Assembly: GCA_964589975.1 (NCBI GenBank)
Contig: CAZPVH010000001.1
Coordinates: 23,214-87,213, forward strand
Source: an uncultured Candidatus Saccharibacteria bacterium
Lineage (GTDB): Bacteria; Patescibacteriota; Minisyncoccia; Phycocordibacterales; CSBR16-119
Reading direction: 5' to 3'
DNA length: 64,000 bases
Below, piece by piece: positions 3,826 to 51,331 of the stretch (position 1 is the stretch's first letter; every line of letters starts with the position of its first letter). The notes under the pieces are model-generated. The model was not told the DNA's origin. It did not search any database and worked only from the letters and a program-made list of their open reading frames with translations. The position numbers and the translations under genes were made by a program.

Positions 3826-5088
3826 TCATTTGCCTCCTTCAAAGATGAACGTTCTGGCGGTCTCGAGCGAGCGCATCTTGTCGAGTTCATCTTGTATGGT
3901 CTCGAACTGAAGTTCGTCGAGAAGTCCATACATTTGGGCGTCAGTTAGTACTGATCCTGTATAAACCAGACAATTGCACATGCTGTTAACATCACCCCAC
4001 GGCGAGGGTGTTTGCATGTCCTTCTCGTCACGAAGCGCTTGTTTTACCTTTTTAAACCACGGGCGCGACAGCAAACGTTTATCATTCAAGACCCCGTGCT
4101 TCAGGATTTCCAAGACCTTTTCGGGGTGTTGAGTATCCACATGAAATCCAAAATGTCCGCCGTCCGGGCTCTCGAAGCTGGTCGTGAAGCCCGAATATGC
4201 CAGAGATTTCCTATGCCTGATGTCTCGAAGTAGAGGGGAGTCAGTCATGCCATGGGTAAAAATTGAACGCATCATCCATTCTTTCACCATTCTTTCCGGT
4301 GTCTCCATCCCAGCCTTCGTTGGAAAAAGTAGCTCGACAGCCGAAGAGGCTTGCTTGGTGGGTAGGATTTTTTCGGTGCCAGCCTCCCACTTCATTTGCT
4401 TTACCACAACTGCCGTTTTCCTTACGGAAACATCTGCGTGGTATGGCAAGTCACGGAATCTTGGCTTAAGCATCCGTATCACTTCCATTTCTGAAAGCGA
4501 GGTAGACATCAAGAAGATCATGCGTGACGTACTGTAGCCCTTTCGCCTTGCGAGGAGCAGGTCCTCATGAGTCATTCCGTTTAGACTCTCGAGGTTTCCG
4601 ATGACCGGATACTGCAAAGGATGATCCTTCCAGACTTCTTGCATAATGCTTTGGAACATCAAGCGTCGCGGCTTTCCAAGTCCTTCGCTAATTTCTTCGC
4701 GAATGATCTTGCGTTCAGACTCGACGTCTTTTGCCCGCAGAAGCGGGGAAGCCACCAGATCTGTCACGACATCTACTGCTAGGGTGAGGTGACTGGTCGG
4801 GACATGAGCGTTGAATTCGGTAGTGTAGTATCCCGTGGATGCACCAATATTTCCACCAGTGTTGTCGATGAGTGTCCGAAGGTTCTTATTCCTCCCGGGG
4901 TATTTTTTCGTCCCACGAAATGGAACATGCTCGAACCAGTGGTACAGTCCGGGTTTGCCGATGAACGTATCGTCAATACTTCCAGTGAGTACCGCTAGTC
5001 GGATAGCACTGTTGTGTATCCCGTCGGGCGTTTTGTTGTAGTAAACTGGAACACCGTTTATCTCGGCGATCTGTTTAAAGTCATTCAT
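3826..5088 (-). CDS. M16-family (pitrilysin/insulinase-like) zinc peptidase
   Basis: 420 aa. Inverted zinc motif HWFEH (HxxEH) near the N-terminus; size typical of M16. Confidence 0.8.
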   Translation of the reverse strand: MNDFKQIAEINGVPVYYNKTPDGIHNSAIRLAVLTGSIDDTFIGKPGLYHWFEHVPFRGTKKYPGRNKNLRTLIDNTGGNIGASTGYYTTEFNAHVPTSHLTLAVDVVTDLVASPLLRAKDVESERKIIREEISEGLGKPRRLMFQSIMQEVWKDHPLQYPVIGNLESLNGMTHEDLLLARRKGYSTSRMIFLMSTSLSEMEVIRMLKPRFRDLPYHADVSVRKTAVVVKQMKWEAGTEKILPTKQASSAVELLFPTKAGMETPERMVKEWMMRSIFTHGMTDSPLLRDIRHRKSLAYSGFTTSFESPDGGHFGFHVDTQHPEKVLEILKHGVLNDKRLLSRPWFKKVKQALRDEKDMQTPSPWGDVNSMCNCLVYTGSVLTDAQMYGLLDELQFETIQDELDKMRSLETARTFIFEGGK

Positions 5089-11260: not shown

Positions 11261-12253
11261 ATGAGAACCATCTTCACCCTCCTCGCCTTCGTGGCGACGT
11301 TCGGGCTTTGCGCCCAAAGCATTTCAGGCGACTGGAATGAATCTCACTACATCATGGGTACGCAAGGCAAGATCGAATACGACGAGTCCATCACGATCAA
11401 GCAGATCGTGAACGTCGGTAACGACTTGCCGCTCCAGCGGCGCGTCCGTTATCGGCATGGCGCCGGTGACTGGCAGTCGTTTCCTGGAGTTCCGGACACG
11501 GTCATCACCCAGAACTACACGTTCCATCGGGTGCTGAACGGCTTGTCATGGAGTCCCTACGACAACTACACTTGGGACATCGACATCCGGTACGTAAACA
11601 CTGGCGGCCAGGTGATCGAGGCGCTCCACAGCGAATGGAACAATATCGTAACCCGAGACAGTTCCAACGCAAGCATTGTGGCGTTTCCCGGTCCATACTC
11701 GAACGAATTGTATCTCCAATACGCCGTGTCCATACATAAAGACATGGGTCCCGGGATTGATACGGATGTGAACCTGCGGGCCGTTGGCCAATCATCCGGT
11801 ATGGTCTACAACGTCGAAGTCGACGTTCCGGATGCCGGACAGGAGTTCCAGACGGTTACCTTGTCTTTCACGCCTTGGTATACTGAGGACATCTGCGTGG
11901 AGATTTGGGTCGAGAGATCTGATCTCATATTCTACGACTACACCGACATCGTTGTCGGTTACGTAGATGTTTGGGTGCCCTGCACGATGTGGGACGGCAA
12001 CTCGACCGCTACCGGCGAGAAGCCTTCCATGCCTGACCTTCTGCCGTTCCCGAGCCCGACTTACGGATCCATCACGGTCCAAGAGCTTGATACGAACGAA
12101 CAGACGCTCGATGTGTACAGCCTGAACGGACAGTTGGTTGAACGTTTGCAGACCTATGGTTTGACAACAGTGACGCACGACTTCAGTAATCTGGCAGCCG
12201 GTGTTTACACCCTGCGCCAGAACGAACGTGCTGTGCGTTTCCAGAAGCTCTGA
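11261..12253 (+). CDS. secreted protein with a Por/T9SS-type C-terminal sorting domain (high-GC3 gene)
   Basis: Signal peptide ...FGLCA|QSIS. C-terminal ~70 aa (LDVYSLNGQLVERLQ...LAAGVYTLRQ...RFQKL) resembles the TIGR04183 Por secretion tail. GC and GC3 are clearly above neighbouring genes. Confidence 0.6.
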   Translation: MRTIFTLLAFVATFGLCAQSISGDWNESHYIMGTQGKIEYDESITIKQIVNVGNDLPLQRRVRYRHGAGDWQSFPGVPDTVITQNYTFHRVLNGLSWSPYDNYTWDIDIRYVNTGGQVIEALHSEWNNIVTRDSSNASIVAFPGPYSNELYLQYAVSIHKDMGPGIDTDVNLRAVGQSSGMVYNVEVDVPDAGQEFQTVTLSFTPWYTEDICVEIWVERSDLIFYDYTDIVVGYVDVWVPCTMWDGNSTATGEKPSMPDLLPFPSPTYGSITVQELDTNEQTLDVYSLNGQLVERLQTYGLTTVTHDFSNLAAGVYTLRQNERAVRFQKL

Positions 12254-24173: not shown

Positions 24174-24584
24174 ATGGACAAACAGACAGCCCTTGCCAGA
24201 ATTGATGAGATATTCAAGCTGGCATTCGAGCAAAACAAAGAACTTTACGCTGCTTGGAAAGATTGGAACGAAAGTTCTTCATCTGATGAAGTGAAGTACC
24301 GGGTCCTCGTGCAGCTCGTTCATCCGGCCGACGGTATAGCAATCGGTATGCCGCTTGCCTATTCACCTAAGGTCAGCCTATGGAGAGCCTGTGATGTTAT
24401 CCAAAAGGTGATCGCTGCAGACAAGCTGATTGCTGATTGGAAGTTTGTGGAGTTCCTCTTGAAGGATGACAAAGACTCCAGATTTTTTCTGAACGACTAT
24501 TTCAGGACATCGCCAAAAGAAAAGATGCTCGACGGGATACCAAGCCTCCAGAACAGATTGCTTGGCCAAGTCAAAGCATCTTGA
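24174..24584 (+). CDS. hypothetical protein, 136 aa
   Basis: ORF with its own promoter and terminator; no family recognised. Confidence 0.6.
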   Translation: MDKQTALARIDEIFKLAFEQNKELYAAWKDWNESSSSDEVKYRVLVQLVHPADGIAIGMPLAYSPKVSLWRACDVIQKVIAADKLIADWKFVEFLLKDDKDSRFFLNDYFRTSPKEKMLDGIPSLQNRLLGQVKAS

Positions 24585-24595
24585 TGCAGAGATCA

Positions 24596-24630
24596 TGAAA
24601 AGCCCTGAAATCTCGGGGCTTTTTTGCTAT
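24596..24630 (+). terminator. terminator (agccctgaaatctcggggct + T-run)
   Basis: Hairpin + TTTTTTG. Confidence 0.65.
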
Positions 24631-24675
24631 GCATCTCGACAAGAAAATTCACTCATGTCGTTTTGATATCCACAG

Positions 24676-24705
24676 TTGCATAGTGAACGTTCGTTCACGT
24701 ATACT
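24676..24705 (+). promoter_or_regulatory. SOS promoter TTGCAT-N18-TATACT with a LexA (Cheo) box GAACGTTCGTTC at 24685-24696 in the spacer
   Basis: gTTGCATagtGAACgttcGTTCacgTATACT directly upstream of the micro-ORF and lexA. Confidence 0.6.
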
Positions 24706-24744
24706 CCATGCAGGTCGATTAATCAAATAAAACTTTTTAAATAT

Positions 24745-24933
24745 ATGACACGTTCACAATACATCCGAACCATCGAAGGCGAGATCAAGAGATTGAACCG
24801 CCGGATCGATCAGAAGATTCTCCGAGGCGAGAATTACTTCTTTGACTCCATCCGCCACAAGTTTCTCTTGAAGCAGCTAAAGAAGCACCAGGGAGACGGC
24901 ATCCTTACCAAGCTTTTCCCAGCCTTCTTCTAA
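24745..24933 (+). CDS. 62-aa basic coiled-coil protein under the LexA box
   Basis: ATG 24745, after the predicted TSS; ends 6 nt before lexA. No TM segment and no recognised family. Candidate SOS-induced small protein. Confidence 0.45.
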   Translation: MTRSQYIRTIEGEIKRLNRRIDQKILRGENYFFDSIRHKFLLKQLKKHQGDGILTKLFPAFF

Positions 24934-24939
24934 ATTTAT

Positions 24940-25506
24940 ATGGATAACAATTACAAAGAAAAATTAAGCGATTTCTATCATGCCAAAAAGCGCATGCCTT
25001 CTTATTCGGAGATGATGAAGCTCTTTGGCTTCAAGTCGAAAAACGCCGTCTTTCGTTTGGTTGAGAAATTTGTGGACGCGGGGATTGTGGCAAAGGATAA
25101 ACTTGGCCGCCTCATTCCGGAAAAGCTCCTTGGCGAGGTGCCGCTTCTCGGCGCGGTCAAAGCTGGCTTCCCGTCTCCTAACGAGGAAGATCTTTCCGAG
25201 ACTATCAGCCTCGACGACTATTTGATTGAAAAGAAAGAGGCGACGTACATGCTCGAAGTCGATGGAGACTCTATGATCGACGCGCATATAGAGAAAGGCG
25301 ATATGGTTATTGCCGAACGTCGAACCACCGCTAAAGATGGTGAGATAGTCATTGCGGAAGTTGATGGAGAATTTACCATGAAATATTTCAGATCAAGCGG
25401 CGGGCGCGTTTGGCTCGAGCCGGCGAACAAGAATTACCCGAACATCTATCCGGAAGGCGACCTCAGGATCTGCGCCGTAGTCAAAGGGGTTATCAGAAAG
25501 TATTAA
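24940..25506 (+). CDS. lexA: LexA repressor (S24 peptidase)
   Basis: N-terminal wHTH; cleavage-site-like VKAG|F; catalytic VDGDSM Ser and Lys (MKYF...). Confidence 0.92.
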   Translation: MDNNYKEKLSDFYHAKKRMPSYSEMMKLFGFKSKNAVFRLVEKFVDAGIVAKDKLGRLIPEKLLGEVPLLGAVKAGFPSPNEEDLSETISLDDYLIEKKEATYMLEVDGDSMIDAHIEKGDMVIAERRTTAKDGEIVIAEVDGEFTMKYFRSSGGRVWLEPANKNYPNIYPEGDLRICAVVKGVIRKY

Positions 25507-25511
25507 ATCTT

Positions 25512-26774
25512 ATGCCGATATCAATAAGAAAATTTCCTCGGGCGATTGTTCATGTCGACGGGGATTCTTTCTTTGTCTCATGTGAGCTCGCGAGTCGGCC
25601 GGATTTAGTTGGCAAACCAGTAGTGACTGGCGAAGAGCGCGGGATTGCGACTGCCATGAGTCCCGAGGCGAAAAGGCTCGGAGTTACTCGCGGCATGCCG
25701 GTTCACCAGATCCGGCGCGAATTCCCATCTGTCGTGATCCTTCCTTCGGATTATGAAAGCTACGCCATGTATTCTCGCCGAATGAAAGATATAGTTCTTC
25801 GCTATACCCCCGAAGTTGAAGAGTACTCGATCGATGAATGCTTTGCCGATATTTCCGGGCTTCGACGGAGTCTTAATATGTCTTATGAAGAGATTGCCGC
25901 CGCGATAAAGATTGACCTTCAAGCGGAGCTCGGCATGACTTTTTCCGTAGGCTTATCAGTCACGAAAGTCTTAGCAAAGGTAGCTTCCAAATGGGACAAA
26001 CCGGACGGTCTAACTTTTATTCCTGGATACAAGATAGAAGAGTTTTTACAAAAACTTCCTGCAAAAGATGTTTGGGGCATCGGGCCTAATACATATTTAT
26101 ATCTTGAGAAGCTTGGGATTAAAACAGCTCTTGATTTAGCAAAGAAAGATTTGGAGTTTGTTAGAACATATTTTACAAAACCCTTAGAGGAAATTTGGCG
26201 AGAGCTTCGCGGTGAACACATACTCCAACTCTCCGTCGGCAAGAAGACTGAATACCGGTCCATCATGAAGACTCGAACATTCACACCGGCGTCATCTGAG
26301 ATATCTGTCATTCTGGCGGAGATATCTCGAAACATTGAATCTGCATGCGCTCGCCTCCGTCTACATGATCTTTATGCCAAAGAAGCAATTTTTTATATCA
26401 AAAGCCAGGATTTTCGTCATCATGGATTAGAAATCAAATTCCCAATCCCGATCGCGACACCAGACAGAATGATTCGCTTGGTTGAAGAAAATTTTCATAA
26501 AGTTTATGAAAAAGGAAAAACATATAGAGCCACGGGAATTATTTTGAAACAAATCACGCCAGGACGAGCGGTAAGTCCGGATCTATTCGGCGAGTTCGTG
26601 AGAGGGGAAGAGGTAAGAAAGATTTATGATGAGATTGATGCGCTTTCCAAAAAATTCGGTCAATCGATCGTGACGCTCGGATCAAGCATGATGGGAAAAA
26701 ACTCCACTACAATCCATCAGAGGAAGCTTGTTAACAGAATATTGCCGCTACCACTTCTCGGGAAGGTCCACTAA
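25512..26774 (+). CDS. dinB: Y-family DNA polymerase IV (DinB)
   Basis: HVDGDSFFVSCE active-site motif. Start set at ATG 25512, immediately after the lexA stop. Confidence 0.9.
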   Translation: MPISIRKFPRAIVHVDGDSFFVSCELASRPDLVGKPVVTGEERGIATAMSPEAKRLGVTRGMPVHQIRREFPSVVILPSDYESYAMYSRRMKDIVLRYTPEVEEYSIDECFADISGLRRSLNMSYEEIAAAIKIDLQAELGMTFSVGLSVTKVLAKVASKWDKPDGLTFIPGYKIEEFLQKLPAKDVWGIGPNTYLYLEKLGIKTALDLAKKDLEFVRTYFTKPLEEIWRELRGEHILQLSVGKKTEYRSIMKTRTFTPASSEISVILAEISRNIESACARLRLHDLYAKEAIFYIKSQDFRHHGLEIKFPIPIATPDRMIRLVEENFHKVYEKGKTYRATGIILKQITPGRAVSPDLFGEFVRGEEVRKIYDEIDALSKKFGQSIVTLGSSMMGKNSTTIHQRKLVNRILPLPLLGKVH

Positions 26775-26822
26775 AAAGAAGAAGCCCTGCAAGCAAGGCT
26801 TCTCTTCTGATTCGCACCGCGC

Positions 26823-27659
26823 TTAGGTCTTCACGACCAGTTCCTTCTTCTTGTCCTTCGGGGTCCTTTTTGCGGTTATGATCTGAAAGCTAATCCCCGC
26901 AGGAGATTCACTCATGACTGGAACTCCGCTGTATTCAGGGTCAATCAATGTCCCAACCCCGGGCAGGAGGCTTACTGCCCCAGCCAGGTTTCCTTTGACG
27001 TTCATGTCGAACACGCGAATTGGCATATGGTTCTCGCGGCAGAGGGTAAAAGAGGTCAGGTCCATCACGCCAAGATTTTTGTCATAAACCTCGCCGAAGC
27101 TGACATGTTCGTAGCGCAAGGTGTTTTTGTCCTGCTCTGGATCCGCCGTATACACTCCGCCAACCCGGGTTCCCTTGAGAACTATATCGGCTTTGATTTC
27201 GACCGCCCGTAGCGCGGCTGCGGTGTCGGTCGTGAAATAAGGATTGCCGGTACCCATTCCGAAGATTATGACACGGCCTTTCTCCAGATGCCTGACGGCG
27301 CGCCGGAAGATGAATGGTTCGGCAATCTGCTCCATCTTCAGCGCCGACAGGAGACGCGTGGCCTGTCCTCGGGTTTCAAGAGCGCTTTGCAGCGCCAAGC
27401 TGTTGATCATCGTCGCCAGCATGCCCATGTGGTCGCCCTGAACACGGTCAATGCCGTTTGACTCGGCTTGCTTGCCTCGGTAAATGTTACCGCCGCCGAC
27501 TATGATCGCGAGCTGTATACCTTGTTTGCTTACCGCTATGATCTCTTCGGCGTAAGCGCTAATGACGGAATCGTCGATCCCATACTCTTTTTCGCCCATG
27601 AGGCTTTCGCCGGATAGTTTCAAAAGAACTCGTTTCGCTGGCTGGGTGGTTTCGGCCAT
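26823..27659 (-). CDS. pyrH: UMP kinase PyrH (with an ~40-aa basic C-terminal extension)
   Basis: [15 protein letters not shown] motifs; 278 aa. Confidence 0.92.
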
Positions 27660-47828: not shown

Positions 47829-49880
47829 ATGGCGGCAGACACGGTAACATACTTCGCTGAAACTGATTTTCGCGGAGAAAAAAGATCATTCGGAATCAAG
47901 AACGAGGACAGATCTCGGCATGTTTATGTTATTGGAAAGACCGGTATGGGTAAGTCGACACTCCTCGAGAACTTGGCCGCCCAGGATATTCAAAACGGCG
48001 AGGGTATGTGCTTCATCGATCCTCACGGCTCGGCAATCGACACACTGCTAGAATATATTCCCGAGGAGCGCATAAAAGATGTCGTCTATTTCGCGCCGTT
48101 TGACTCTGACTTTCCGATTTCATTTAACGTTATGGAAGACGTGGGCGCTGATCAGCGCCACCTAGTTGTGTCGGGGCTCATGTCTGCCTTTAAAAAAATC
48201 TGGGTCGACGCCTGGTCGGCCAGAATGGAACACATTTTGAATAATACAATTCTCGCGCTTTTGGAGTACCCGGGCTCGACCTTGCTTGGCGTGAACCGGA
48301 TGTACGCGGACAAGGGCTTCCGCGAAGAAGTCGTTTCAAAAGTCACCGACCCTGGAGTTAAAAGCTTTTGGAACGAAGAGTTCGCCAAATGGGATGAAAG
48401 ATTCATGCGCGAAGCGACGGCTGCTATTCAAAACAAGATCGGCCAATTTACTTCTAATCCTCTCATTCGAAACATTGTCGGCCAAGGACATTCGAGTTTC
48501 GATATCCGAAAGCTGATGGACGAAAAGAAGATATTCTTAGTGAACCTTTCAAAAGGACGCATCGGCGAACAGAATGCCGGACTTCTTGGCGCCATGATCG
48601 TAACGAAAATCTACTTGGCGGCTATGTCCCGCGCTGACGTTACCAAGTCCGCTATGTCGCAATTACCTCCGTTTTTCCTTTTTGTCGACGAATTCCAAAA
48701 CTTTGCAAACGACTCCTTCTCCGATATTTTGGCGGAGGCGCGAAAGTATAAATTAAATCTAACAATCGCGCACCAATACATTGAACAGATGGAAGAATCT
48801 GTTCGCGATGCTGTATTCGGCAACGTCGGTACAACCATTTCTTTTCGCGTTGGACCACTCGATGCGGAGGTCCTTGAGAAGATTTTCTTGCCGACATTTA
48901 CAGCTGAAGACATTGTCAATCTGGGTAAATACCAGATCTATCTGACGCTGATGATTGATGGAGTTGGGTCAAAGCCGTTCTCGGCAACCAACATGGCGCC
49001 GCTAAAGAAGAAGACAGTCACTTATAGAAATGAGGTTATTGAATTTTCTCGCGCGACGTATGCTCATAACCGCGGTGAGGTTCAAGGCGGAATCGAAGCT
49101 TGGCATGCAAATAATTATGAAACCGGAAAGGATAAAAAGGAACGCGAAAAGAAAGAAGCGTATCTAGCCGAGAAGGCTCAAAAAGAAAAATTACTTTATG
49201 GTGATAATCCGCCTCCTCCCGGGCCAGCCAAGATTCAAATCCCAGATGATATTGTTAAGAAGATTTCTGAAAAGCGCCCTCCGGGATCTACTGAGTACGG
49301 CAGCCGACCGCGCGAAGAAAAGCCGGTCGCTTCACCAAGCCGCGACAATCGACCTTTCCAGAAAGCGCTGACTGAAATTAGGTCTACGCCTCAAAACATA
49401 CCAAAACCTAATGTTTCTCTTGACGGGTCTAGTGGTCGCGTGAGTCAGGGGGGAGGCGCTGTTCAGCAGCACAATAATTTGAATAGGCCACGGGTAGATG
49501 TTCCTCGCCCCGCAAGTAATCAGCCGGCCCAGAATCAGCCATTTAGAAAGCTTGATCCGAAAATCGCTACCGACAAGAATAAAAGCCTTTTGAAGGATGT
49601 ACTTTCGCGCGCGCTTGAAAAGATGCCAGCCGCACAAAAAATCGCGCAAGCGGAAAATACTTCTGAAAATAAATCGACTTCTTCGATTGACATTGTCGCT
49701 CCCATAAATCAGCCAGAAATTACTCCAATCAAAAAAGATGCTCCGGCGCAGCTTAACGCCAATGCTCCTACAAATCTCGATTTTTCAAAACGAGAAGAGG
49801 ACAAGAGAACTGAAGAGTCAGATAAGCCGAAAAAACCTAGAGAAATTCCTGAAGATGTTCTAAAACAAATATTGGAATAA
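47829..49880 (+). CDS. VirD4/TraG/TraD-like type IV coupling-protein-family ATPase (FtsK/HerA superfamily), soluble, with a ~280-aa disordered C-terminal tail
   Basis: Walker A VIGKTGMGKSTL, Walker B FLFVDEFQNF, T4CP-like all-alpha region. No N-terminal TM. C-terminus Pro/Lys/Glu-rich. Confidence 0.7.
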   Translation: MAADTVTYFAETDFRGEKRSFGIKNEDRSRHVYVIGKTGMGKSTLLENLAAQDIQNGEGMCFIDPHGSAIDTLLEYIPEERIKDVVYFAPFDSDFPISFNVMEDVGADQRHLVVSGLMSAFKKIWVDAWSARMEHILNNTILALLEYPGSTLLGVNRMYADKGFREEVVSKVTDPGVKSFWNEEFAKWDERFMREATAAIQNKIGQFTSNPLIRNIVGQGHSSFDIRKLMDEKKIFLVNLSKGRIGEQNAGLLGAMIVTKIYLAAMSRADVTKSAMSQLPPFFLFVDEFQNFANDSFSDILAEARKYKLNLTIAHQYIEQMEESVRDAVFGNVGTTISFRVGPLDAEVLEKIFLPTFTAEDIVNLGKYQIYLTLMIDGVGSKPFSATNMAPLKKKTVTYRNEVIEFSRATYAHNRGEVQGGIEAWHANNYETGKDKKEREKKEAYLAEKAQKEKLLYGDNPPPPGPAKIQIPDDIVKKISEKRPPGSTEYGSRPREEKPVASPSRDNRPFQKALTEIRSTPQNIPKPNVSLDGSSGRVSQGGGAVQQHNNLNRPRVDVPRPASNQPAQNQPFRKLDPKIATDKNKSLLKDVLSRALEKMPAAQKIAQAENTSENKSTSSIDIVAPINQPEITPIKKDAPAQLNANAPTNLDFSKREEDKRTEESDKPKKPREIPEDVLKQILE

Positions 49881-49903
49881 TTATAATTAAATAAAAGTTT
49901 TAT

Positions 49904-51331
49904 ATGTTTGATAGAAACATTATCTTCAAAGCTTTATTAATAGGTGGGTTTTTGGTGTTACCGATAATTACTCGAGCTGAAGTTTTAGTCACAGAGCTTG
50001 CTTGGATGGGTACGACAGTTTCTGCAAATGACGAATGGATTGAGATATATAACAGTGGTGGAGAGTCGGTAAGTCTTACCGGTTGGACACTCACGGCTTC
50101 AGACGGAACTCCAAGCATTACATTGTCTGGCTCAATCGGCGCGGGAGAATACAAACTACTGGAACGTACAGACGATACAACATATCCGGGGATTACGGCC
50201 CATCAGATATTTACTGGAGCACTCGCAAATGAAGGAGAGAATCTCTCGCTCAAAGATAACGGAGCAGTGGTCCAATCAATGCCATTTTCTAGCGGATGGC
50301 CAGCAGGTGATTCGGTCACAAAGAAAACGATGCAATGGACGGGCTCTGCTTGGGTAACCGCTGATGAAACTGCGGGAAGCGCTACAACTGCTACATCAAG
50401 TGAGGAAGAAGAGGAGAATCAAGAAGAAGAGACAGGCGGAGAAGAAGAGGAGAATAATGAAGAGGAAGATGAGGAAGAGGTTGTAACTATAGCAACCGGA
50501 AGTCATACTGCACCAAAGCGAACGGTCTATGATGATATGGTTTTCGAACTTGATTTCCCGACGCGAGCTGTGGCAGGTAGCCCTGTGCGTTTTAGCGCTC
50601 AAGCTCTTGATTTTGATCGCACGAAACTCAGAAAAGGGAAATATATTTTCAACATGGGCGATGGAACTGTCCGAACTTTCAGTAAGGACTGGAACGGTAA
50701 GAGTGTCGGTTTCTTTTATCATGCGTATGATCACCCCGGTACGTATCAGATCTCGATAAAATACTACATGACAGTTTTCGAGGATTTACCGCCAGAAGTA
50801 GAAGATACTTGGACAATCGAAGTTTTGGCGCCGAGTATTTCTATTTCAAGAATCATGAATGATGGTTCAGTCGAGATGAAGAATATGTCGACTGGGGCTG
50901 TAGATATTTCTAAATGGGTTCTTTCTGATAATTCGGGTAGGAAATTCGAAATCCCCGACGGCTCGGTGATATTGGGAGGCAAGACCGTCGTCTTTGATTC
51001 CAGCACGACGCATTTCGTGGCGGGCGGGATTATTAGCCTCTCAACACCAACCGCCGCTCACGTGGCTTCTTCCATGGCGCTAAGGCCGGTTTCTTCTTAC
51101 AAGCCGACCAGCGTAAAATCCAAAACAGAACAGAAGGAAACCACGGGTGAAGTATTGGGAGTTAGTTCAGCTAGCCCTGCCGAAGATACCGCTATTGCAG
51201 AAGTAAAAGAAAAACCCGGCGCTTTAGTCTGGGTTCTTCTCTTTATAATTCTGGTCTTGGCATCCGTCATTGCCGTTCTTCTCTTGAAAAGGGAAGAACA
51301 CAAAGAAGAATATCTTCTAATCGACGAATAA
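49904..51331 (+). CDS. lamin-tail-domain (LTD) surface protein with an acidic E-rich linker and a C-terminal TM anchor
   Basis: Signal peptide; LTD 1 ITELAWMGT..NDEWIEIYNSG..VSLTGWTL; poly-Glu linker; LTD 2 with KWVLSDNSG; C-terminal TM + basic tail. Confidence 0.75.
   Translation: MFDRNIIFKALLIGGFLVLPIITRAEVLVTELAWMGTTVSANDEWIEIYNSGGESVSLTGWTLTASDGTPSITLSGSIGAGEYKLLERTDDTTYPGITAHQIFTGALANEGENLSLKDNGAVVQSMPFSSGWPAGDSVTKKTMQWTGSAWVTADETAGSATTATSSEEEEENQEEETGGEEEENNEEEDEEEVVTIATGSHTAPKRTVYDDMVFELDFPTRAVAGSPVRFSAQALDFDRTKLRKGKYIFNMGDGTVRTFSKDWNGKSVGFFYHAYDHPGTYQISIKYYMTVFEDLPPEVEDTWTIEVLAPSISISRIMNDGSVEMKNMSTGAVDISKWVLSDNSGRKFEIPDGSVILGGKTVVFDSSTTHFVAGGIISLSTPTAAHVASSMALRPVSSYKPTSVKSKTEQKETTGEVLGVSSASPAEDTAIAEVKEKPGALVWVLLFIILVLASVIAVLLLKREEHKEEYLLIDE

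Follow-up and report, generated by a model that had tools for sequence, protein, structure and literature searches.

In a 64-kb stretch of the chromosome of an uncultured Candidatus Saccharibacteria bacterium (hereafter the window), we analysed an operon in which a small open reading frame (ORF) of 62 amino acids (aa), here called the micro-ORF, precedes lexA and a gene for a Y-family translesion DNA polymerase behind a promoter whose spacer holds a putative LexA operator. Judged by its layout and genomic setting, the locus is the chromosomal SOS master operon of this bacterium. The Cheo-type box, the autoregulated lexA and the translesion polymerase in the operon are known components of such systems; the small protein, which belongs to no described family, is not among them. 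Its conservation indicates that the micro-ORF is a real gene under strong purifying selection, and it stays next to lexA wherever it was retrieved. As to what it does, we tentatively favour, at somewhat less than an even chance, an SOS-induced checkpoint effector that would be the counterpart of YneA, SosA, ChiZ, DivS and PA3008-type inhibitors. The elements of the operon, with positions read from the plus-strand sequence and ORFs taken from a translation list, are as follows.

24666 to 24674, plus strand: DnaA-box-like 9-mer ATATCCACA, 8/9 match to TTATCCACA, directly 5' of the -35 element (promoter comparison)
24676 to 24681, plus strand: -35 element TTGCAT (sequence reading)
24683 to 24698, plus strand: putative LexA operator, palindrome GTGAAC-GTTC-GTTCAC, in the promoter spacer (sequence and conservation)
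24700 to 24705, plus strand: -10 element TATACT, 1 nt past the operator (sequence)
24712 to 24744, plus strand: predicted 5' leader, A/U-rich, unstructured and without a Shine-Dalgarno motif (transcription start placed from the -10 element)
24745 to 24933, plus strand: micro-ORF, 62 aa (ORF list, homologs and the ratio of nonsynonymous to synonymous substitution rates, dN/dS)
24940 to 25506, plus strand: lexA, 188 aa (TIGR00498, Peptidase_S24)
25512 to 26774, plus strand: Y-family translesion DNA polymerase (DinB/Pol IV-like), 420 aa (IMS, IMS_C)

The micro-ORF family and its linkage to lexA

Several lines of evidence indicate that the micro-ORF is a real gene. A word-seeded search recovered 13 homologs of 61-62 aa with 66-94% identity, and a profile search of 1.84 billion representatives returned, at E up to 0.001, 220 proteins that with few exceptions have 60-90 aa (about 65 aa); the genomes that yielded relatives are labelled uncultured Candidatus Saccharibacteria or Patescibacteria. 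Among close relatives dN/dS is 0.04-0.13, with synonymous sites saturated. Across 125 sequences with a mean column identity of 30%, residues M1, N18, I21, D22 and H38 are invariant and I25, G28, Y31 and L41 nearly so. AlphaFold2 arrived at the same model from two different alignments, with predicted local distance difference test (pLDDT) scores of 85.5 and 85.9: helices 3-27 and 32-49 form a hairpin, with pLDDT of 88-98 over residues 1-49, and residues 50-62 are a low-confidence, flexible tail. The leader RNA shows no sign of structure, as its fold is weaker than that of shuffled sequences (z = +1.37) and a search for a structured leader or riboswitch gave no Rfam family above noise. Because dN/dS is low, residues are invariant at 30% identity, the hairpin is confidently predicted and the leader is unstructured, we conclude that the micro-ORF encodes a real protein. 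The translation of 62 aa quoted in an earlier, sequence-only reading of this DNA was exact, and its start codon is now placed at 24745. The missing ribosome-binding site is no argument against translation, since Shine-Dalgarno motifs are nearly absent genome-wide: only 2 of the 47 window genes examined (ORFs of at least 150 aa) have a Shine-Dalgarno-like motif. Many window genes also have a -10 element of the TAnAAT/TATACT type, often with TG, 7-12 nt 5' of the ATG, and both features point to leaderless or Shine-Dalgarno-independent translation as a common mode here.

The family is annotated as hypothetical in every source, and the statement in the sequence-only reading that the protein matches none of the division inhibitors it recognised withstood searches of Pfam, NCBIfam and the PDB, none of which yielded a relative. 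The window micro-protein has no match to any Pfam family, SulA included, at E up to 1, and its sole NCBIfam match, to a group II reverse transcriptase/maturase model, is noise (12.7 bits against a cut-off of 300). Pfam searches with the 125 members gave scattered coiled-coil noise, with no consistent family, no SulA and no LysM, and a profile search of the PDB found only a haemagglutinin coiled coil at E > 1. Fold searches with the model returned generic hairpins only, among which no DNA-binding fold was recognised, so that the predicted fold gives no indication of function. The micro-protein was also rightly described as basic and free of a transmembrane (TM) segment, to which the AlphaFold model now adds the helical hairpin: its isoelectric point (pI) is 10.5 with a net charge of +8 (median pI 10.4 and charge +8 over 154 members), and its maximal Kyte-Doolittle value over a 19-residue window is -0.09, the threshold of 1.6 being reached by a single one of the 154 members. 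In the same set Phe and Trp make up 22% of the last 14 residues and 2% of the body, the C-terminal residue is Phe in 76, and the tail is modestly amphipathic (0.35 compared with 0.25 for shuffled sequences). An aromatic tail of low pLDDT is as expected of a partner-binding, membrane-binding or degron segment. On the tail sequence alone we considered a MinD/FtsA-like amphipathic anchor, a mimic of the FtsZ C-terminal peptide (the tail reads LFPAFF, to be compared with the I-P-x-F-L core of that peptide), a beta-clamp-binding motif and a protease degron.

The micro-ORF is genetically linked to lexA. At loci retrieved through the micro-ORF the neighbour is always an S24 LexA of 187-193 aa directly beside it, and the remaining flanks are unrelated from locus to locus. 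To counter the ascertainment bias of such a retrieval we used a metagenome scan seeded with a LexA alignment, giving 80 loci whose six frames were scanned with a hidden Markov model (HMM) of the family, and a neighbour-joining tree of the 80 LexA proteins. All micro-ORF carriers fall into one LexA clade, where 36 of 40 assessable members have the gene; in the lexA-seeded subset 21 of 25 assessable clade loci have it, and all of the approximately 38 loci beyond the clade lack it. The four exceptions within the clade comprise three losses (L039, L044 and L046) and one degraded copy (L024, 514-643), which opens with the N-terminus MSQAQYTAL, then has an internal deletion or frameshift, and continues with a C-terminal half (LLLKKVRYHTRRNFAQRIFNLFFRK) that can be read in a different frame; this copy is a pseudogene or else reflects an error in the assembly.

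Where the micro-ORF comes first, as is usual, lexA mostly follows at a distance of -8 to +16 nt, and some loci show overlaps of the form ATGA or ATGCATAA. In three loci the order is inverted and the micro-ORF follows lexA after 8-20 nt (L037 2178-2934, L045 2501-3255 and L049 2501-3249); there the LexA box stands directly before lexA, and the three occupy two separate places in the LexA tree, which means that, as read from these loci, adjacency persists through two independent order flips. The sequence-only reading had the micro-ORF as the first SOS-induced product and suggested an HMM survey of whether it always lies upstream of lexA. It does always adjoin lexA where loci were looked up through the micro-ORF, but it is not always upstream, and because the gene follows lexA in these three loci, the first position is not a conserved trait. 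The conserved property, on the arrangements compared, is adjacency to and co-transcription with lexA. Two loci have an extra small ORF between micro-ORF and lexA (L013, 2976-3167, 63 aa; L017, approximately 4213-4395, about 60 aa). The idea that it is a diverged duplicate was dropped, as the likeness is by eye only and neither the HMM (E up to 10) nor BLASTP shows similarity. A second ORF of 62 aa in L002 (4308-4496) is likewise not a member of the family.

The lexA assignment is firm. The protein scores 119.4 bits against the equivalog model TIGR00498 (cut-off 110.95) over residues 14-187, the N-terminal DNA-binding domain included, and matches Peptidase_S24 at E = 5.6e-29. It consists of a winged helix-turn-helix N-domain and an S24 autopeptidase domain, and the cleavage site Ala75-Gly76 and the dyad Ser111/Lys148 are invariant in 14 orthologs. 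Its pI is 5.6, and that of its C-terminal domain 4.6. The name dinB, which the sequence-only reading gave to the third gene, is only approximate: the product is a Y-family polymerase by its IMS (E = 9.5e-41) and little-finger IMS_C (E = 3.8e-11) domains, but it falls below every Pol IV and UmuC equivalog cut-off, the best NCBIfam match being a Pol IV model at 206.7 bits (cut-offs 256-371), with a UmuC model at 178.1 bits (cut-off 431). The polymerase is absent from most micro-ORF loci, and lexA followed by the polymerase is common in Patescibacteria-type loci where there is no micro-ORF (L028, L039, L041, L044, L048, L051, L052, L058, L061-L064, L068 and others). From this distribution the lexA-polymerase operon is wider than the micro-ORF and probably older, and the polymerase is not part of the conserved unit, its link to lexA being a separate one.

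Promoter, operator and transcription unit

The sequence-only reading had placed a Cheo-type core within TTGCAT-N18-TATACT, and the three positions proved correct. The core GAAC-N4-GTTC (GAACGTTCGTTC, 24685-24696) lies in the 18-nt spacer (24682-24699) between the -35 and -10 elements, overlapping the promoter of an SOS gene as a Cheo-type LexA box does, and is part of a longer palindrome, GTGAAC-N4-GTTCAC. The exact 16-mer occurs once in the window; calculated analytically, a palindrome with 12 fixed bases would turn up by chance about 0.004 times in 64 kb. Without the extended arms, GAAC-N4-GTTC is not significant, with 3 sites against 1.1 expected in the window and 11 of 100 shuffles reaching 3; the other two sites, at 3904 and 24266, are inside coding regions, have no extended arms and are within chance, and were rejected. 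The chance GAACGAAAGTTC at 24266 falls within an ORF of 136 aa upstream of the operon.

Stronger evidence comes from a phylogenetic footprint of 41 distinct promoters, across which the design of promoter and operator is retained. The arms GTGAAC and GTTCAC are invariant or nearly so, and the central 4 nt vary around a consensus of GATC. The flanking G, T and C of the arms had been left free in the search pattern and are nevertheless conserved in 40-41 of the 41. The -10 consensus is TATAcT, 1 nt past the operator. In over-extended gene calls of distant homologs the operator and -10 element are even translated, as 'ERSFTYT'. To call the promoter near-consensus, as the sequence-only reading did, overstates its -35 element, as TTGCAT matches TTGACA at 3/6 and was for that reason passed over by the promoter scan; the element itself is genuine, because relatives have TTGACT or TTGACA at this place, the general form being TTGACN or TTGCAT. 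The motif AGGTCGATT at the predicted transcription start (24713-24721) is conserved in close relatives, and 39 A/U-rich nt separate the -10 element from the ATG of the micro-ORF. Among close relatives TGTCGTTTTGA (24650-24660), upstream of the DnaA-box match, is conserved as well. The conserved design has the appearance of the footprint expected from a dimeric repressor that occludes RNA polymerase. We infer LexA binding and damage induction from this anatomy and its conservation, and the proposal that LexA represses the operon through the in-promoter operator, with damage relieving repression by LexA self-cleavage, is well supported on these grounds.

A second conserved feature stands just 5' of the -35 element, where 32 of the 41 promoters have a match of at least 8/9 to TTATCCACA, the DnaA-box consensus. 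The match is perfect in 21 and identically oriented in 31 of the 32 (which include L003, L009, L015, L018, L020 and promoters in the L022-L056 range), against a background of 1.3% per 45-nt window. The window copy has one mismatch, and position and orientation of the motif are conserved. The motif mostly accompanies the micro-ORF, and most lexA promoters of loci without one lack it (L041, L044, L046, L048, L050 and L058); L039 has a perfect box and no micro-ORF. DnaA would be expected to bind at 24666-24674, and it is plausible that it adds a replication-status input to the promoter of the lexA operon. With a conserved DnaA box beside the LexA operator, this one promoter may integrate signals of replication status and of DNA damage.

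The borders of the transcription unit and the convergent neighbour are as follows.

24598 to 24625, plus strand: terminator-like hairpin and T-run (AAAGCCC-loop-GGGGCTTTTTT), from sequence reading and not in the terminator scan listing
26779 to 26804, no strand assigned: terminator hairpin common to the operon and the convergent pyrH, at the operon end (terminator scan)
26823 to 27659, minus strand: pyrH (AA_kinase), convergent (domain match)

The upstream hairpin terminates the gene at 24174-24584 and insulates the operon; L002, L003 and L009 have other hairpin-and-T sequences at the corresponding place. The downstream hairpin has a stem of 11 pairs and is listed on the minus strand, its plus-strand reading being AAGAAGCCCTGCAAGCAAGGCTTCT. 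The intergenic gaps are 6 nt between micro-ORF and lexA, as the sequence-only reading had it, and 5 nt between lexA and the polymerase (the stop ends at 25506 and the ATG is at 25512) where it had counted 6. Its statement that there are no internal terminators is borne out: the scan found no convincing one, and a weak plus-strand match inside lexA (24979-24996) is within shuffle expectation, with 6 found and 5.5 expected. With genes 6 and 5 nt apart, a terminator at either end and no significant one inside, the sequence supports the reading of micro-ORF, lexA and polymerase as one LexA-box-controlled operon whose operator overlaps the promoter.

Possible functions of the micro-protein

If the micro-protein is a checkpoint effector, the operon would work as follows. 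LexA on GTGAAC-N4-GTTCAC would fill the spacer between the -35 and -10 elements and block RNA polymerase. DNA damage would lead to LexA self-cleavage at Ala75-Gly76 by means of Ser111 and Lys148, and derepression would then produce one mRNA for the micro-ORF, lexA and, in this lineage, the Y-family translesion polymerase, with the DnaA-box match beside the -35 element probably contributing its replication-status input. The micro-ORF would be translated without a Shine-Dalgarno motif, like nearly all genes of the genome, and its product would act as a cytoplasmic SOS-induced effector that slows division or replication during repair, the hairpin being the folded body and the aromatic tail the contact to a target, the membrane or a protease. 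Anatomy, conservation, coding status and lexA linkage can be read off the loci directly; the effector function as a whole we would add by analogy to other SOS systems.

That analogy, a reasonable one, is with the unrelated SOS division inhibitors that repeatedly adjoin lexA, a synteny that has been used to predict function (PMC6851548). YneA, SosA, ChiZ/Rv2719c and DivS are, like the micro-protein, small, fast-evolving and lineage-restricted, adjoin lexA and have a Cheo-type LexA box (PMC6851548). They differ in being divergently transcribed and in having a single TM helix and often LysM, and they act outside the membrane, whereas the micro-protein is co-transcribed with lexA, predicted to be soluble, basic and TM-free, and has no sequence similarity to any of them; it shares their lexA adjacency and LexA box and not their TM domain. 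In Pseudomonas aeruginosa the gene of a sulA-like putative inhibitor, PA3008, adjoins lexA and its transcript rises together with that of lexA (PMC1250226). SulA itself differs in having about 160 aa, a RecA-like fold and a position downstream of lexA, and the micro-protein matches neither SulA nor any other Pfam family. PA3008 and lexA are co-transcribed in one operon. The lexA-dinB operons and LexA regulon of Gram-positive bacteria share the GAAC-N4-GTTC core, the autoregulated lexA and the translesion polymerase in the operon, whereas the operon here has extended arms (GTGAAC/GTTCAC), a DnaA-box match at the -35 element and an extra conserved small gene. A further likeness is to Sda of Bacillus subtilis (46 aa, PDB 1PV0), a helical hairpin of similar size. 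Its promoter has DnaA boxes and its C-terminal residues are a degron, which parallel the DnaA-box match and the exposed C-tail seen here. Sda is not lexA-linked, however, and acts on sporulation kinases, of which Saccharibacteria would be expected to have none; homology to it was rejected at an hhalign probability of 6% over 13 aligned columns.

Several points weigh against the checkpoint-effector reading. The characterised lexA-adjacent inhibitors of Gram-positive bacteria all have a single TM domain (PMC6851548), which is their defining feature and which the micro-protein family lacks but for the one member that reaches the threshold; nor is there homology to SulA or to any Pfam family. Co-transcription or overlap with lexA would entail basal synthesis from an autoregulated promoter, which sits uneasily with an inhibitor and would be no less natural for a stoichiometric partner of LexA. 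Any target of the effector is proposed by analogy only. Our literature search on Saccharibacteria or the Candidate Phyla Radiation (CPR) with LexA or SOS found nothing relevant, and Sanchez-Osuna et al. 2017 (Patescibacteria SOS network; doi 10.1111/1462-2920.13826), which stood outside that search, may already list the ORF.

The most serious alternative, somewhat less probable in our estimate, is that the micro-protein is a LexA cofactor, binding LexA, possibly at its acidic C-terminal domain, and tuning operator binding or RecA-stimulated autocleavage. Strict adjacency in either order, with short gaps and some overlaps, is the pattern of translationally coupled subunits, the micro-ORF is confined to one LexA clade, and the charges are complementary (pI 10.5 for the micro-protein against 5.6 for LexA and 4.6 for its C-terminal domain). 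There are precedents in gp7 of phage GIL01, which acts on host LexA, and in DdrR, which works with UmuDAb in Acinetobacter. Both are small helical proteins that work with a repressor of the LexA type and whose genes adjoin a LexA-like one; gp7 (ORF7, 50 aa) adjoins the LexA-like ORF6. Yet gp7 is phage-borne, and homology to it was rejected at an hhalign probability of 0.2%, whereas the micro-ORF is chromosomal and clade-wide and its product's binding to LexA is hypothetical. Moreover, lexA without an intact micro-ORF at the four exceptional clade loci implies that LexA can dispense with the micro-protein, and effectors that do not bind LexA typically adjoin lexA too (PMC6851548). The charge could instead mark a nucleic-acid-binding protein that acts on replication or the nucleoid, or that recognises TTATCCACA in place of DnaA, since this motif accompanies the micro-ORF and is absent from most lexA promoters lacking it. 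We regard this as improbable: a single asymmetric 9-mer of fixed orientation that equals the DnaA-box consensus is a more natural site for the monomeric DnaA domain IV than for a small hairpin dimer, a perfect box persists in L039 although the micro-ORF is absent there, the fold searches recognised no DNA-binding fold, and the co-occurrence of box and micro-ORF may reflect shared ancestry alone.

The distribution already largely refutes a role as accessory of a mobile or error-prone-polymerase cassette, an umuDC-like or YolD-like helper that serves the polymerase rather than LexA, to which we give very little weight. The LexA C-domain does score above the cut-off of the UmuD subfamily model (114.7 against 110 bits) and the polymerase is immediately 3' of lexA, but the polymerase is missing from most micro-ORF loci and the micro-ORF from many lexA-polymerase operons, the neighbourhood is housekeeping, and tblastn of the micro-ORF against phages and plasmids gave no matches; a prophage or plasmid origin was rejected for the last two reasons. 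The sequence-only reading had also allowed for a mere conserved leader, that is, a non-functional leader peptide or upstream ORF whose translation is coupled to or controls that of lexA. A position 6 nt upstream of a lexA that itself has no preceding Shine-Dalgarno motif would suit such a role, which is nonetheless hardly credible and, as far as sequence evidence goes, refuted: purifying selection extends over the whole protein, invariant residues persist at 30% identity in a confidently predicted fold, the gene is downstream of lexA in three loci, and nearly all window genes are without a Shine-Dalgarno motif.

In broader terms, we propose, as a possibility that we doubt somewhat more than we believe, a clade-wide, previously undescribed SOS component of Saccharibacteria and close relatives that combines a hairpin and aromatic tail, a gene tied to lexA and a promoter with DnaA box and LexA box, and whose mechanism would be unlike that of known SOS effectors. 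That mechanism could be one or the other of two: a TM-free cytoplasmic checkpoint that reads replication and damage, or an endogenous LexA cofactor that sets the response threshold in minimal epibiotic cells. Saccharibacteria, members of the CPR, have small genomes that retain few regulators, and a small gene kept beside lexA under strong selection across a LexA clade in such genomes is likely to matter. As a checkpoint effector, the micro-protein would be the first inhibitor of division or replication in the SOS response to be proposed for the CPR, and a soluble one, unlike the membrane-anchored inhibitors of Gram-positive bacteria; as a LexA-binding protein, it would be a cofactor of LexA encoded on the host's own chromosome, whereas such cofactors are known mainly from a phage (gp7) and from Acinetobacter (DdrR). 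With its short, well-defined sequence and five invariant residues, the family is easy to test in Saccharibacteria-host co-culture systems, which are now genetically tractable.

Other genes in the window

The window contains chromosomal housekeeping genes along its whole length, among them those for SecA, DnaE, RNase HII, pyruvate kinase, PyrH, Ddl, Fmt/Def, HisRS and GyrA. The ORF of 136 aa at 24174-24584, which separates an ABC transporter from the operon, matched nothing in Pfam or NCBIfam; it is found in L001 and not at the same position in L002, L003 and L009. At 47829-51328 a TraG/VirD4-like coupling-protein ATPase (weak matches to TraG-D_C, TrwB and T4SS-DNA_transf) is followed by a lamin-tail-domain protein, and together they may form a type IV secretion or DNA-transfer module. 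A protein of 330 aa at 11261-12250 has a Por_Secre_tail domain (type IX secretion system C-terminal sorting domain, E = 1.1e-8), which is unexpected outside Bacteroidota.

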